A stretch of DNA of 48,586 bases from Bryobacterales bacterium (GTDB lineage Bacteria > Acidobacteriota > Terriglobia > Bryobacterales > Bryobacteraceae), in contig PLDO01000523.1 in assembly GCA_003136215.1 (NCBI GenBank), forward strand, positions 16,708 through 65,293, given 5' to 3'. How positions within the stretch are numbered: position 1 is the first letter of the stretch; each line of letters begins with the position of its first letter. Position numbers and translations under genes: made by a program. This document shows, piece after piece, positions 19,048 to 24,362 of the stretch. Below the pieces are notes generated by a model. It saw only the letters and a program-made list of their open reading frames with translations, had not been told where the DNA came from and ran no database searches.

Positions 19048-21993
19048 ATGGAAGACAACAATACACCCCATGAATCTCTCCTGGCAGAACTGCTCGCCGC
19101 GAACGGGCGGGAATACGGTTTCGCGGCGGCGCTGGGCGCGCTGCTGTTACTGAACGTTACCGGCGTGTTCCGCTTCATCCTGGGTCTGGACACCGCGATT
19201 CTGGTCACCGTGCTGGCCGGGTACAAGACGTTTTACAACACCATCTCCGGGCTGCTGGAGAAGACCATCTCGGCGGACCTGGCGCTGTGCATCGCGGCGA
19301 TCGCGGCGCTTTCTGTGGGCGAGTACGCGGCCGCGGCCGAAACCATGTTTATCGTGATGGTGGGGGAGACGCTGGAATCGTTCGCCGCCGGCCGCACCGA
19401 AGCGGCCATCCAGCGATTCGTGGCGCGCTTGCCGCGCACCGCGCGGCGCGTGGCGGACGGCCGCGAGGAAATGGTGGACGCCGCGTCGCTCGTGCCCGGT
19501 GAGTGGATCGTGGTGAAAGCCGGCGAACGCATTGCCGCCGACGGCTTGATCGAGCAGGGAGCTTCGACTATCGACGAGAGCTCGATCACGGGCGAGTCTC
19601 TGCCGCAATACAAACGGACCGGCGACGAGGTCTTCTCGGGCACCTTGAACGGCAACGGCCTGTTACGCATCTGTGTGACTCGCGCCGGCGGCGAGACCAC
19701 GCTGGCCCGCGTCGTGGAACTGGTGAAGGAGGCCAGGGAAAGGCGCGCGCCGGTGGAGCGTTTGGCCGATCGCTACGCCAGGTACTTCCTGCCCGCGCTG
19801 CTGCTCGCCGGCGCCCTCACCTGGTATTTCACGCGCGACTGGCTGCGCACCGTGGCGGTGCTCGTCGTCGCCTGCCCGTGCGCGCTGATTCTAGCCACGC
19901 CGACGGCGATGGTCGCCGCCATCGGCGGTCTCGCGCGCCGCGGTATTTTGGTGCGCGGCGGCGGCGTCCTGCAGAACGCCGCCAAGGTGGATGCGGCCGT
20001 GTTCGACAAAACCGGCACGGTCACCGAGGGACATTTCGAGATCGCCAAAGTGATTCCGCTTGGCCGGAGCGAGGACGAAGTTCTGGCTCTGGCGGCGGCG
20101 TGCGAACGAAGTAGCGATCACGCGTTGGCACGCGTGATCGTGAACGAGGCCAGGCGGCGCGGACTGGCGCTTGCCGAGTCCGCCGACGCCCGCGCGATTC
20201 CTGGTCGAGGGGTTGAGTGCTGCCTGAACGGAAAGCTCGTCCGCACCGGCAGCGCTGCGTATGTGGTGGAACAGGTGAGCGGGAACGTGGCGCTGGTGCA
20301 GGCCGAAGCCGATCACCTCGGCGCCACGGCGGTGCTGGTGTCGGAGGATGGGCAACTGGCGGGCGCCATCCTGCTGCGCGACCGCGTCCGCGAGGGCGTT
20401 CGCGAAGCGGTCCGCGGCCTACGTTCCATGGGGATCGCCTACCAGGCGATGCTCACGGGCGACCGGCGCGGTCCGGCGGAAGCCATGGCGCGCGAGATCG
20501 GCATCGATCGCGTGGAGGCTGAACTGCTGCCCCAGCAGAAGCTGGAGCGCGTGCGCCAGCTGGCGTCGCAAGGTCGCACCGTGGCGATGGTGGGCGACGG
20601 CATCAACGACGCGGCTGCGCTGGCCGCGGCCAGCGTGGGCATCGCGGTGGCCGGCGCGAGCGACATCACGGCCGAGGCCGCCGGGGTGGTCTACCTGCCA
20701 CACTCGCTGGAGAAACTGCCACAATTGTTCGTGGTCAGCCGGCGTGCGGTCGAGACCGCGTGGCTCAATATCGTGCTGTTCGCCGGGGCGCTGAATCTGC
20801 TGGCCGTGCTGGCCTGCGCCACCGGCAAACTGGGACCGATGGGCGCCGCGCTGACGCACCAGCTTTCCTCGTTCTGCGTGATGATGAATTCCCTGCGGCT
20901 GCTGAGAGTGGAGGGCGGGCACGGGTGGTGGAGCCGCCCCCGCGCGGTCCTCGGCAGGTTGGGCGAGATCGACGGGGGAGCACGAGTCCGAGCTGCGCTC
21001 GGATGGACAAGGCGGAGCCTTATCCCACTGGCCGGAGCGTTGTTGCTCCTCAATGGATTCTACGCGCTGGGACCAGACGAGGAAGGCGTCATCGAGCGCT
21101 TCGGAAGAAAGATCGCGCCCTTCAGCATCCCCGGTCTGCACTACAAGCTGCCATGGCCCATCGAGCGGCTGACGCGCATCGCGCCGCGCCGCGTGAGGGT
21201 GGTGGAGATCGGGTTCCGTTCGAACGCCGGGGCGGCCTACACGGAGCCCTCGGCGTACGAGTGGAACGTGCAGCATCGCGGCGGGAGGTTTGAGAGCCGG
21301 CCGGAGGAATCGTCCGCGCTCACCGGGGACCAGAACATGATCGAGCTGAATGCCAGCGTGCACTACGACGTGCCCCACGCGGACGCCTTTCTCTTCCGCC
21401 AACTGGATGGCGCCGCCACGGTGCGCGCGGCGGCCGAATCGGTGATTCACGGGATTGCTTCCACCACACCGCTGGACGCGCTGCTGACCACGGGCCGTGA
21501 GGCGATCGAGGCTCGGGCCCAGGCCGAATTGCAGCGGCGCCTGGACCGCTACGAGACCGGCGTGCGCGTAATCCGTGTCAAGTTGGAGGACGTGCATCCT
21601 TCCAGCGATGTGGTGGATGCGTTCCGCGATGTCTCCGCGGCGTTCGAAGAAAAGAATCGCGCCATCAACCAGGCGCAGGGATACCGCGCCGAGCAGATCG
21701 CGCTGGCGCGGGGGAGCGCGCGCGCGTTGGCCGAGGGCGCGCGGGCATATGCGCTGGCACGCGTCAACCGGTCCAACGGCGACGCCGGCAGGTTCGCATC
21801 GCGGGAGCAGGCGTACCGCACCGCGCCGGGGGTAACGGAGACACGGCTCTATCTGGAAGCCATGGAGCAGGTTCTGCCGGGCAAGAAGAAGCTGATCGTG
21901 GATTCCAGTAAAGGGCGAAGACACCTGCTGCTGCTGGAAGACGGTGTGGAGATTGCGCCGCCGGGTGCGGCCATCACTGGGGCGAAGGAGTAG
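19048..21993 (+). CDS. P1B-type (CPC) P-type ATPase fused in frame to a C-terminal HflK-like SPFH/band-7 domain
   Basis: GGGAGGGG lies upstream of the ATG. ATPase motifs are ITGES, ACPCALILATP, DKTGTVTEG, MLTGD and VGDGINDAAALAAA, ending at NSLRLLR (~aa 625). There is no HMA domain. After a linker and a TM segment (SLIPLAGALLLLNGFYAL) comes a full HflK-like domain: GVIERFGRK, AFRDVSAAFEEKNRAINQAQGY, TETRLYLEAMEQVL. The frame is uninterrupted. Confidence 0.85.
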   Translation: MEDNNTPHESLLAELLAANGREYGFAAALGALLLLNVTGVFRFILGLDTAILVTVLAGYKTFYNTISGLLEKTISADLALCIAAIAALSVGEYAAAAETMFIVMVGETLESFAAGRTEAAIQRFVARLPRTARRVADGREEMVDAASLVPGEWIVVKAGERIAADGLIEQGASTIDESSITGESLPQYKRTGDEVFSGTLNGNGLLRICVTRAGGETTLARVVELVKEARERRAPVERLADRYARYFLPALLLAGALTWYFTRDWLRTVAVLVVACPCALILATPTAMVAAIGGLARRGILVRGGGVLQNAAKVDAAVFDKTGTVTEGHFEIAKVIPLGRSEDEVLALAAACERSSDHALARVIVNEARRRGLALAESADARAIPGRGVECCLNGKLVRTGSAAYVVEQVSGNVALVQAEADHLGATAVLVSEDGQLAGAILLRDRVREGVREAVRGLRSMGIAYQAMLTGDRRGPAEAMAREIGIDRVEAELLPQQKLERVRQLASQGRTVAMVGDGINDAAALAAASVGIAVAGASDITAEAAGVVYLPHSLEKLPQLFVVSRRAVETAWLNIVLFAGALNLLAVLACATGKLGPMGAALTHQLSSFCVMMNSLRLLRVEGGHGWWSRPRAVLGRLGEIDGGARVRAALGWTRRSLIPLAGALLLLNGFYALGPDEEGVIERFGRKIAPFSIPGLHYKLPWPIERLTRIAPRRVRVVEIGFRSNAGAAYTEPSAYEWNVQHRGGRFESRPEESSALTGDQNMIELNASVHYDVPHADAFLFRQLDGAATVRAAAESVIHGIASTTPLDALLTTGREAIEARAQAELQRRLDRYETGVRVIRVKLEDVHPSSDVVDAFRDVSAAFEEKNRAINQAQGYRAEQIALARGSARALAEGARAYALARVNRSNGDAGRFASREQAYRTAPGVTETRLYLEAMEQVLPGKKKLIVDSSKGRRHLLLLEDGVEIAPPGAAITGAKE
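20988..21028 (+). repeat. Copy 2 of the 41-nt double-hairpin repeat, inside the ATPase-SPFH ORF
   Basis: CCGAGCTGCGCTCGGATGGACAAGGCGGAGCCTTATCCCAC, 39/41 identical to copy 3. It is translated as (R)AALGWTRRSLIP at aa ~647-661, exactly between the pump and SPFH parts. Confidence 0.85.
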
Positions 21994-21999
21994 AAGACG

Positions 22000-23879: not shown

Positions 23880-24362
23880 ATGAAACGGAAAATGCAGGCA
23901 CGCGCATTGGCGGTGGCCGCGCTCGCGGCGCTGTTGGGACTTGGAGTCGCGCGTAAGGCTGGTTGGATCGGGCCGGCGGTCACGCCCGCCGGCACCGAGG
24001 ATGCGGTTTCCGCGGCCATCTATGCCACCATCGATGCGGCGCGGGCAGGAGACGCCAGCCGCTATCTGGCCGGCTATACGGGGCCGATGCGGGTCGCCCT
24101 CCAACGGTCGCTGGACGATGGCGGCGCTGCCGCGTTCGCCCGCTACTTGCGAAGCTTGGATGCCGGAGTGAAGGGCCTCGCGGTTTGGGTAGAAAGCGGC
24201 GCCGGGCGGGAAGCGAAGGCGCGGGTAGAGTATGTTTACCAGGAGCGGAATGAAGTGCAGGTGCTGCACCTGGAGAAGGACACGGGCATCTGGCGAATCG
24301 CGCGAACCGAGGGCGATCAAGCTGTCAAGGCGGCGATCCCGTACGGAACGCCGATCCGGTAG
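23880..24362 (+). CDS. Small membrane-anchored/secreted protein, unknown function
   Basis: The ATG is the nucleotide right after the hflK-like TAG. Signal/anchor sequence MKRKMQARALAVAALAALLGLGVA. 160 aa with no motif I recognise. Confidence 0.65.
   Translation: MKRKMQARALAVAALAALLGLGVARKAGWIGPAVTPAGTEDAVSAAIYATIDAARAGDASRYLAGYTGPMRVALQRSLDDGGAAAFARYLRSLDAGVKGLAVWVESGAGREAKARVEYVYQERNEVQVLHLEKDTGIWRIARTEGDQAVKAAIPYGTPIR

Follow-up and report, generated by a model that had tools for sequence, protein, structure and literature searches.

A P1B-type metal pump fused to an HflK-type SPFH domain in a conserved HflK-HflC-HflK gene cassette

HflK and HflC assemble a membrane cage that is best known for enclosing the FtsH protease, and the E. 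coli ring is built of 12 HflK and 12 HflC subunits. The "24 disulfide bonds" described for the E. coli complex (PMC13220708) fit such a ring. Recent papers disagree over whether the cage is an inhibitor of FtsH or an aid to it, and they describe respiration-related roles as well, and what HflK/C, prohibitin, stomatin and other SPFH cages do beyond corralling FtsH-type proteases is an active question. Here, we describe a cassette of four genes in a 48,586-nucleotide (nt) stretch of a Bryobacterales genome (assembly GCA_003136215.1, contig PLDO01000523.1, positions 16,708 to 65,293; hereafter, the window), the first of which encodes a P1B-type metal pump continuous with an HflK-type SPFH domain. 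The module may provide the first natural "client" for an SPFH membrane cage.

Two published systems come closest: the PacL-CtpC effluxosomes of M. tuberculosis and the SPFH genes, so far unexplained, in the Pseudomonas aeruginosa hmtA locus. In the effluxosomes, a small scaffold protein encoded in the same operon gathers P1B pumps into platforms (PMC9374683, PMC13043812) that are independent of the mycobacterial flotillin-like protein; PacL is a cytoplasmic Glu/Ala-repeat protein with a single transmembrane (TM) helix, whereas the scaffold in the window would be of the SPFH type. In P. aeruginosa, PA2439 (HflK family), PA2438 (HflC), PA2437 (HflC family) and the pump gene PA2435 (HmtA) are induced by zinc depletion (PMC4542158), the PA2439 promoter binds Zur (PMC8531726), and the proteins of the PA2435-PA2439 locus rise under zinc depletion (PMC11761036). 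This locus, known from Zur-regulon transcriptomics, electrophoretic mobility shift assays and proteomics and likened here by gene content, shares with the window a P1B pump encoded with three SPFH genes, but its genes are separate (PA2436 among them) and the pump gene comes last, not first. The association of SPFH genes with a pump was thus noticed earlier, at the level of gene lists. The main survey of prokaryotic SPFH proteins leaves ATPases unmentioned, and our full-text literature searches returned no description of a pump-SPFH fusion or of a fusion between SPFH and the cation diffusion facilitator (CDF) family. The building blocks all belong to known families; what is new is the architecture, the putative three-paralogue ring and the implied client.

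The fused gene and its cassette

The 981-codon open reading frame that the initial annotation had read as uninterrupted is so (Table 1), and profile scans place three Pfam domains in its product: E1-E2_ATPase (residues 128-298), Hydrolase (314-528) and Band_7 (675-878). NCBIfam models recognise a heavy-metal P1B ATPase in residues 77-618 (TIGR01525, 540 bits against a cut-off of 346) and HflK in residues 671-962 (TIGR01933, 190.6 bits against 159.4), in line with the HflK-type band-7 domain that had been proposed. All the P-type ATPase signatures quoted at the outset are present, with the catalytic motifs ITGES, DKTGT, LTGD and GDGINDAAAL intact, and there is indeed no N-terminal metal-binding domain, only 19 residues lying ahead of the first TM region.

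AlphaFold2 models the whole fusion with a mean predicted local distance difference test (pLDDT) score of 83 and its N-terminal 620 residues as a confident P1B pump fold (pLDDT ~90), which matches A. fulgidus CopA (7r0g) with a TM-score of 0.75-0.77 over the target; the fold of the fusion model also matches the P1B structure 4umw. The eight-TM P1B fold is common to the window pump, the P1B-4 pump sCoaT (7qbz) and the P1B-1 pump CopA (7r0g, 3rfu). Behind the pump, a linker of low confidence (residues 620-656, pLDDT <50) carries eight Lys and Arg against three Asp and Glu; in most family members it is ~35-44 amino acids (aa) long, with a median net charge of +2. It leads into a ninth helix, seen as a hydropathy peak at residues 657-675 and as a helix at 643-668 in the model, in a region that aligns with the E. 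coli HflK anchor region (93-132). The SPFH domain is modelled at residues 671-851, followed by a long coiled-coil helix (853-942), and the C-terminal 28 residues have low confidence in the monomer model.

P1B pumps end on the cytoplasmic side after their last TM helix, and one extra TM helix therefore places the SPFH domain and coiled coil of the fusion in the periplasm, with the same topology as a free HflK, so that the fusion is topologically coherent. This topology is drawn from homology and the AlphaFold2 model because a crude hydropathy scan under-calls the TM helices of the pump.

The four cassette genes lie head to tail on the + strand, and every junction agrees with the initial annotation: 6 nt separate the fusion from the HflC gene (TAG-aagacg-ATG), the start codon of the second, pump-less HflK (HflK2) overlaps the HflC stop codon (cgATGAgc, a 4-nt overlap), and the gene for a 160-aa protein follows the HflK2 stop directly (TAG-ATG). 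HflC reaches 212.9 bits with TIGR01932 (cut-off 134.4) and HflK2 207.8 bits with TIGR01933 (cut-off 159.4). Compared with the E. coli cage, the fused SPFH domain scores 120 bits against HflK (7vhp_E, aligned to residue 357 of 419), the window HflC 149 bits against HflC (7vhp_G) and HflK2 143 bits against HflK, and all three align with the cage subunits through the coiled-coil region. The cassette resembles the E. coli HflK/HflC-FtsH system (7vhp, 7wi3, 9cz1/9cz2) in its N-terminal TM anchors, periplasmic bodies and adjacent, translationally coupled genes. It differs in having three SPFH genes (K-C-K) instead of two, a P1B pump at the N-terminus of the fused HflK, an extra insert at the FtsH-contact site, and no link to ftsH, hfq or hflX (the canonical hflKC context is seen at our locus L094). 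The client of the cassette is probably the pump, not the protease.

The 160-aa protein has no Pfam match, and the 83 homologues listed are unnamed or "hypothetical", with one called "ketosteroid isomerase-like". AlphaFold2 gives it a TM anchor and a confident core (pLDDT >90), for which Foldseek returns NTF2-like structures (the RsgI9 NTF2 domain 7sjy, 3b7c and the N-terminal domain of PBP2a); the predicted fold is accordingly NTF2-like. We also considered two other identities for it. In stomatin-NfeD operons, as in the window, an SPFH gene precedes the gene of a small membrane-anchored partner, but that partner has the NfeD OB-fold, and the 160-aa protein combines an NTF2-like predicted fold with no NfeD Pfam match. 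A PacL identity is likewise rejected, as no PacL (DUF1490-type) Pfam match was found in the four proteins.

Distribution and parallel fusions

The fusion recurs widely. A search of 5.8 billion proteins, clustered at 90% identity, returned at least 119 clusters of 956-1016 aa with 66-96% identity that contain the three Pfam domains together. JGI, ENA, NCBI and Logan assemblies contributed them, mostly of Bryobacteraceae, and their source labels read "Cu+-exporting ATPase", "HflK protein" or "FtsH protease activity modulator HflK". When 1.84 billion 50%-identity representatives were searched exhaustively with HMMER, fusions ranked at the top, and 81 of the best 150 matches have both halves (~33% identity upward, 987-1301 aa), one of these clusters coming from Elusimicrobiota. 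A scan of one genome per GTDB species with a five-sequence alignment as query, taking the best 80 loci, yielded 76 with the fused-type SPFH domain; the ATPase part is visible in 70 of these 76, and the remaining six are cut by a contig end. Carriers within the Acidobacteriota include Bryobacteraceae, Terriglobia, Vicinamibacterales, Blastocatellia and others, and outside it Candidatus Fervidibacter and other Armatimonadota, Planctomycetota, Verrucomicrobiota and Elusimicrobiota. The module is not specific to Acidobacteriota and spans at least five phyla. The initial annotation had allowed that the fusion might prove both common and already characterised; common it is, and no paper describing its function was found.

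Gene order is conserved as well. Among loci with enough downstream DNA, HflC follows the fusion in 67 of 69, the second HflK is present in 59 of 61 and the small protein in 45 of 57, so that the pairing of pump and SPFH genes is far from confined to this genome. The full set of four genes also occurs in Fervidibacter (L068), Planctomycetota (L072, L079, L087) and an unclassified bacterium (L069); the Verrucomicrobiota loci have the first three genes of the cassette, and the Elusimicrobiota contig has two SPFH genes upstream of the fusion instead. In a neighbour-joining tree, the fused SPFH domains form one clade and the free HflK2 proteins another, with a similar order of phyla, and the canonical two-gene HflKs (Nitrospinota, L080) fall outside both. 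The mirrored clades indicate that the module arose once and was inherited or transferred as a unit, and the tree indicates that fused and free HflK have co-evolved since that single origin.

The 2009 survey of SPFH proteins lists in its supplementary table an operonic SPFH11a/b pair in Solibacter usitatus, Chloroflexi and Planctomycetes (PMC2636767). That distribution is reminiscent of the fusion cassettes reported here.

A second exporter family has been joined to HflK in the same way. In a plasmid collection, where the pump as query gave thousands of generic P1B matches, the best match to the window HflC (42.5% identity, against ~31-37% for ordinary HflCs) lies on a plasmid of Aquibium oceanicum (NZ_CP018172.1, L089), in an operon ordered "hflK"-hflC-hflK-peptidyl-prolyl isomerase (PPIase)-ZntA-type pump. 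Its first "HflK" (5367..6914) is a Cation_efflux (CDF) membrane domain fused to Band_7, and both domains are present in all of the best 120 clusters that match this protein (511-539 aa); the named carriers are Alphaproteobacteria and Chloroflexi, where it is annotated simply as "HflK". At all three CDF loci examined (L089, L091, L092), HflC, a free HflK and a gene for a large Rotamase_2 PPIase follow. These cassettes, which are widespread too, resemble that of the window in carrying an exporter on the HflK N-terminus, followed by HflC, a free HflK and a fourth gene for a periplasmic protein; they differ in the Cation_efflux domain and in the fourth gene, which encodes a large PPIase, not an NTF2-like protein. 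Metal exporters of two unrelated families have thus been attached to HflK at one and the same terminus, each within a K-C-K cassette. The exporter-HflK theme is therefore a general one, and the recruitment of two unrelated exporters speaks for a general role of the SPFH ring in metal export or in the maturation of periplasmic proteins.

Unfused operons exist too. A Burkholderia ubonensis plasmid (NZ_CP013415.1, L093 4859..10871) carries an HflK-HflC-SPFH-P1B pump operon, in which HflK (631 aa) has a polytopic N-terminal extension of ~300 aa and is closer to the fused paralogue (103 against 75 bits), and the third SPFH gene is not an HflK2 homologue. The pump (649 aa) starts 4 nt within the preceding gene, lacks a metal-binding domain and has CPC with HNVGT (the CPC + H-N class). 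The operon is flanked by insertion sequence elements, and the plasmid is conjugative.

Ion site, proposed function and alternatives

TM4 of the window pump reads ACPCALILATP, with CPC as in Cu+ and Zn2+ pumps and not the SPC of P1B-4; the HP nucleotide motif is SDHAL, with its His kept; TM5 has N574...N583, TM6 has P597-x6-H604-Q-L-S-S-x5-N614, and the sequence of the last TM is THQLSSFCVMMNSLRLL. The 61 full-length fusion representatives share the signature CPC in TM4 (kept in 59), N-x8-N in TM5 and P-x6-H-[Q/E]-x-x-S-x5-N-[S/A]-x-R-L-L in TM6. The transport site is conserved down to 33% identity, which argues that the pump is under selection as a pump.

These motifs were compared with the classical subgroups. 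The P1B-1 (Cu+/Ag+) signature, which Arguello reportedly set out in 2003, is YN-x4-P in TM5 and M-x2-SS in TM6; in the alignment with CopA, the window pump has Leu/Ala in place of the Tyr, no Pro, and His604 at the Met position, and P1B-1 is rejected. So is P1B-2 (Zn2+/Cd2+/Pb2+), as the TM5 Lys and TM6 Asp-x-Gly of ZntA-like pumps are replaced by Asn583 and His604; the ZntA-type pump of L089, by contrast, has ...GLKAVF... and ...LADTGAT.... With P1B-4 (Co2+/Zn2+/Fe2+...) the likeness is partial: nearly all members have CPC instead of SPC, yet TM6 carries a HEGGT-type motif and the metal-binding domain is absent. H604-Q-L-S-S aligns with HEGST of sCoaT, H604 being its His, some fusion-family members have HE rather than HQ, and the TM5-TM6 loop is short, as in sCoaT. 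The last TM, which the initial annotation had counted among atypical selectivity residues together with SDHAL in place of SEHPL, thus has a counterpart in sCoaT. By its motifs, the pump is a CPC + H-[QE] hybrid that fits no classical subgroup and belongs to an unclassified P1B class. Its closest non-fused relatives have CPC + H-[N/Q/E], mostly without a metal-binding domain, which defines a large uncharacterised class (CPC with His-Gln/Glu/Asn) and links it to the SPFH genes, themselves unexplained, in the zinc-starvation regulon of P. aeruginosa.

A ligand set of Cys2 with His/Gln(Glu)/Asn/Ser suggests a divalent transition metal rather than Cu+. The transported ion is most likely of this kind, with Zn2+ as the leading candidate, given the Cys2-His-type site, the Zur-controlled unfused analogue of P. 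aeruginosa, the CDF parallel and the candidate client described below; Co2+, Fe2+, Mn2+ or Ni2+ are possible. In the Elusimicrobiota fusion locus (L004, 5243..6909), a CbiQ + ABC_tran (ECF-type) pair lies directly upstream of the pump. Another such pair lies upstream of a non-fused relative (L086, 4242..5820) on an archaeal-looking contig that also carries stomatin and NfeD, a single case, though suggestive. These pairs may hint at Co/Ni handling.

The candidate client is encoded upstream of the cassette. The 1006-aa protein starts with a signal anchor and ends in a DUF3604 domain, and it also contains a beta-propeller region (Reg_prop/BNR). Among its relatives, 38 homologues conserve H678-x-H680, D713-H714, E747, H756, H804, D876-H877 and H881, a set that we take to resemble the metal ligands of PHP-type enzymes. 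A Verrucomicrobiota homologue (L077:2358-5063) aligns over its full length with the CehA/McbA metallohydrolase model at 57.6 bits, below the cut-off of 80 bits, and no solved relative of the DUF3604 protein was found by sequence. PHP-type homologues occur within 6-8 kb of the cassette at 23 of 34 fully flanked loci from four phyla, their hosts including Fervidibacter, Verrucomicrobiota, Planctomycetota and many Acidobacteriota. In Fervidibacter, the gene lies 42-108 nt upstream of the cassette on the same strand, and at several loci it overlaps the pump gene or is 12-52 nt away; its orientation varies between loci, and tandem duplicates occur in several. From this linkage, an exported multinuclear metalloenzyme of the PHP type is a plausible client of the pump.

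Taken together, we propose, as a reading with about an even chance of being right, that the cassette encodes an HflK/C-type ring that carries tethered divalent-metal pumps and may serve the maturation of periplasmic metalloproteins. The four genes would encode a specialised HflK/HflC-type SPFH assembly with its client covalently attached. HflC and HflK-type subunits would take alternate places, as in the E. coli ring, and the HflK-type subunits would be of two co-evolving kinds, one with a P1B pump on its cytoplasmic N-terminus and one plain. The ring would fence a membrane patch and a periplasmic vault and hold a fixed number of pumps, and admixture of the plain HflK would thin out the pump-bearing copies enough to make room for their bulky cytoplasmic head-pieces. 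By a rough estimate of size, which we assume and have not computed, twelve P1B head-pieces would be crowded inside a ring of ~20 nm; such crowding would offer a geometric rationale for the universally retained plain HflK. The pump would export a divalent metal locally, insulated, to the periplasmic side, where it may mature metalloproteins such as the neighbouring beta-propeller/PHP-type hydrolase, and the NTF2-like anchored protein would be an accessory. The idea of a pump in a "private SPFH microdomain", offered by the initial annotation, is consistent with all of the evidence. A natural, ancient covalent fusion names the client of the cage outright and provides an experimental handle, by which one can test the stoichiometry, whether the pumps sit within the ring or beyond it, and how the ring affects a measurable transport activity. 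Hundreds of entries called "FtsH protease activity modulator HflK" or "Cu+-exporting ATPase" are half-annotated.

Several points weigh against this proposal. Ring formation by these paralogues is assumed from homology, and the metal is assigned from motifs and analogy. HmtA, the sole studied pump with such a gene neighbourhood, is reported to be a Cu/Zn importer in the summary given by PMC8456098. The fusions at L063 (6087..9227) and L088 (8001..11441) stand alone, without adjacent HflC or HflK; for these, the partner subunits may come from distant genes or not be required. No metal ligands are evident in the NTF2-like protein, which went undetected at 12 of 57 loci, and 11 of the 34 fully flanked loci have no PHP-type gene within 6-8 kb. 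In the window itself, a GH5 gene and a 151-nt gap with two hairpins lie between the PHP-type gene and the pump, which makes their co-transcription uncertain here.

A bolder form of the proposal, which we put forward tentatively, is that the SPFH ring is a periplasmic metallation and folding chamber, in which tethered exporters load exported apo-enzymes away from competing metals. The P1B pump or CDF would discharge a divalent metal into a capped nanocompartment, whose candidate client here is the beta-propeller/PHP hydrolase; the CDF cassettes encode a PPIase beside their SPFH genes. If true, this would give SPFH cages a new function and reveal a new principle by which bacteria allocate metals, and the Zur-regulated hmtA-hflKC locus of P. 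aeruginosa would then read as a delivery device that spares zinc.

It is unlikely, though worth weighing, that the assembly is an ordinary FtsH-HflK/C complex and that the fusion brings the pump to the protease, setting its abundance or clearing damaged or mismetallated copies. HflK is the FtsH-contacting subunit in E. coli, through R141 and E142 among other residues, and the known substrates of FtsH include a P-type ATPase, MgtA (PMC13220708). The FtsH-contact residues are partly conserved in the window HflKs, the fused copy keeping the equivalent of E. coli R185 (VRxxAES) and the free copy having Gly there. As the 2009 survey found no HflK/C (SPFH3) in either of two cultured Acidobacteria genomes (PMC2636767), the cassette could also be the only HflK/C of its host. 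On the other hand, the fused paralogue has a conserved insert of ~32 aa (residues ~725-757), a gap in the alignment with E. coli HflK, with W739 and H743 near-invariant, and it falls exactly where R141/E142 sit. No FtsH-like open reading frame was found in the window or in 84 loci, though this counts for little, since in E. coli, too, ftsH lies apart from these genes. A constitutive protease tether would leave the recruitment of two exporters and the linkage to PPIase and PHP-type genes unexplained.

Less probable still is an uptake machine, in which the pump imports Zn2+ (or Cu) under scarcity and the SPFH vault and NTF2-like protein collect or retain the metal. The unfused hmtA-hflKC locus, Zur-controlled and induced by zinc depletion at the RNA and protein levels, speaks for it, as does HmtA itself, which, when expressed, led to Cu/Zn uptake (Lewinson 2009, in the summary of PMC8456098); the unfused Burkholderia pump, without a metal-binding domain, is in the same CPC + H-N class. 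The likeness to HmtA is, however, one of gene neighbourhood; the CDF proteins fused to HflK in the parallel cassettes belong to a family of known exporters, and the P1B structures matched by the model are pumps described as exporters. Inward transport by a P1B pump would also be mechanistically unusual. A Zur-box-like AT-rich palindrome is not evident by eye in the 151-nt upstream region, for which no formal search was run.

We consider it improbable that there is no ring at all and that the SPFH part acts solely in cis as a periplasmic regulatory or lipid-microdomain anchor, with the neighbouring HflC and HflK forming an independent system that chance or shared regulation has kept close. The stand-alone fusions and the low-confidence C-terminal residues of the monomer model would suit such an arrangement; the adjacency of HflC (67/69) and HflK2 (59/61) across phyla, the overlapping stop and start codons, the mirrored phylogenies of the two HflK paralogues and the K-C-K order repeated in the CDF cassettes all argue against it. 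Of the stand-alone cases, L063 is Fervidibacter sinensis, and L088 belongs to a distant subfamily with an insertion in the TM5-TM6 loop.

Finally, two ordinary genes joined by a sequencing error have practically no chance of explaining the fusion: a frameshift splits the gene at L053, L058, L072, L074, L025 and L046, a small minority that suggests sequencing or assembly errors at those loci, whereas the frame is uninterrupted, with a conserved linker length, in hundreds of independent assemblies from different pipelines and at least five phyla, which excludes an artefact, and the stop or frameshift at the junction that would have undone the initial annotation is absent.

Neighbouring genes and the upstream region

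Table 1. Features of the window, with the parts of the fusion protein listed beneath its gene (TM, transmembrane; positions are those of the window).
Feature	Position	Strand	Product or residues	Evidence or remark
Pump-HflK fusion gene	19048..21993	+	981 aa	Open reading frame list, Pfam, NCBIfam, AlphaFold2
P1B ATPase module	19048..20907	+	aa 1-620	
Arg-rich linker, predicted cytoplasmic	20905..21015	+	aa 620-656 (~37 aa)	
Ninth TM helix, equivalent to the membrane anchor of HflK	21016..21072	+	aa 657-675	
HflK-type SPFH domain and long coiled coil	21058..21933	+	aa 671-962	
Insert specific to the fused HflK paralogue	21220..21318	+	aa ~725-757	Contains EPSAYEWNVQHRGGRF
HflC paralogue	22000..22890	+	296 aa, N-terminal TM anchor	TIGR01932
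Second, pump-less HflK paralogue (HflK2)	22887..23879	+	330 aa	TIGR01933
Membrane-anchored periplasmic protein, predicted NTF2-like fold	23880..24362	+	160 aa	AlphaFold2, Foldseek
Exported beta-propeller + DUF3604/PHP-type metallohydrolase gene	14107..17127	+	1006 aa	Pfam DUF3604, Reg_prop
GH5 cellulase + TIG-domain gene	17124..18896	+		Between the PHP-type gene and the pump gene
tRNA gene	8835..8907	+		One of the two sole Rfam matches of the window
tRNA gene	40085..40158	-		One of the two sole Rfam matches of the window

A 4-nt overlap joins the stop of the PHP-type gene to the start of the GH5/TIG gene. A GH5 gene stands between the PHP-type gene and the pump at L001/L002 as well, and a gap of ~1.8-2.1 kb at the same position in several close relatives suggests that they are arranged alike. 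Loci in which the PHP-type and pump genes are directly adjacent leave no space for a GH5 gene, which thus looks like a lineage-specific insertion.

An anti-phage defence system is ruled out, as PADLOC models matched none of five proteins (0/5). The Rfam gathering scan of the whole window returned two tRNAs and nothing else, so that a riboswitch, or another RNA of known type, ahead of the pump gene is ruled out, and a scan of positions 18600-24800 for sigma-70 promoters and terminators gave nothing informative. The 151-nt gap upstream of the pump gene does contain two perfect hairpins with 7-bp stems, at 18936..18953 (GGCAGGC-TCAA-GCCTGCC) and 18989..19006 (GCAGGCG-ATTT-CGCCTGC), neither with an Rfam match, which could be terminator, attenuator or operator sites.

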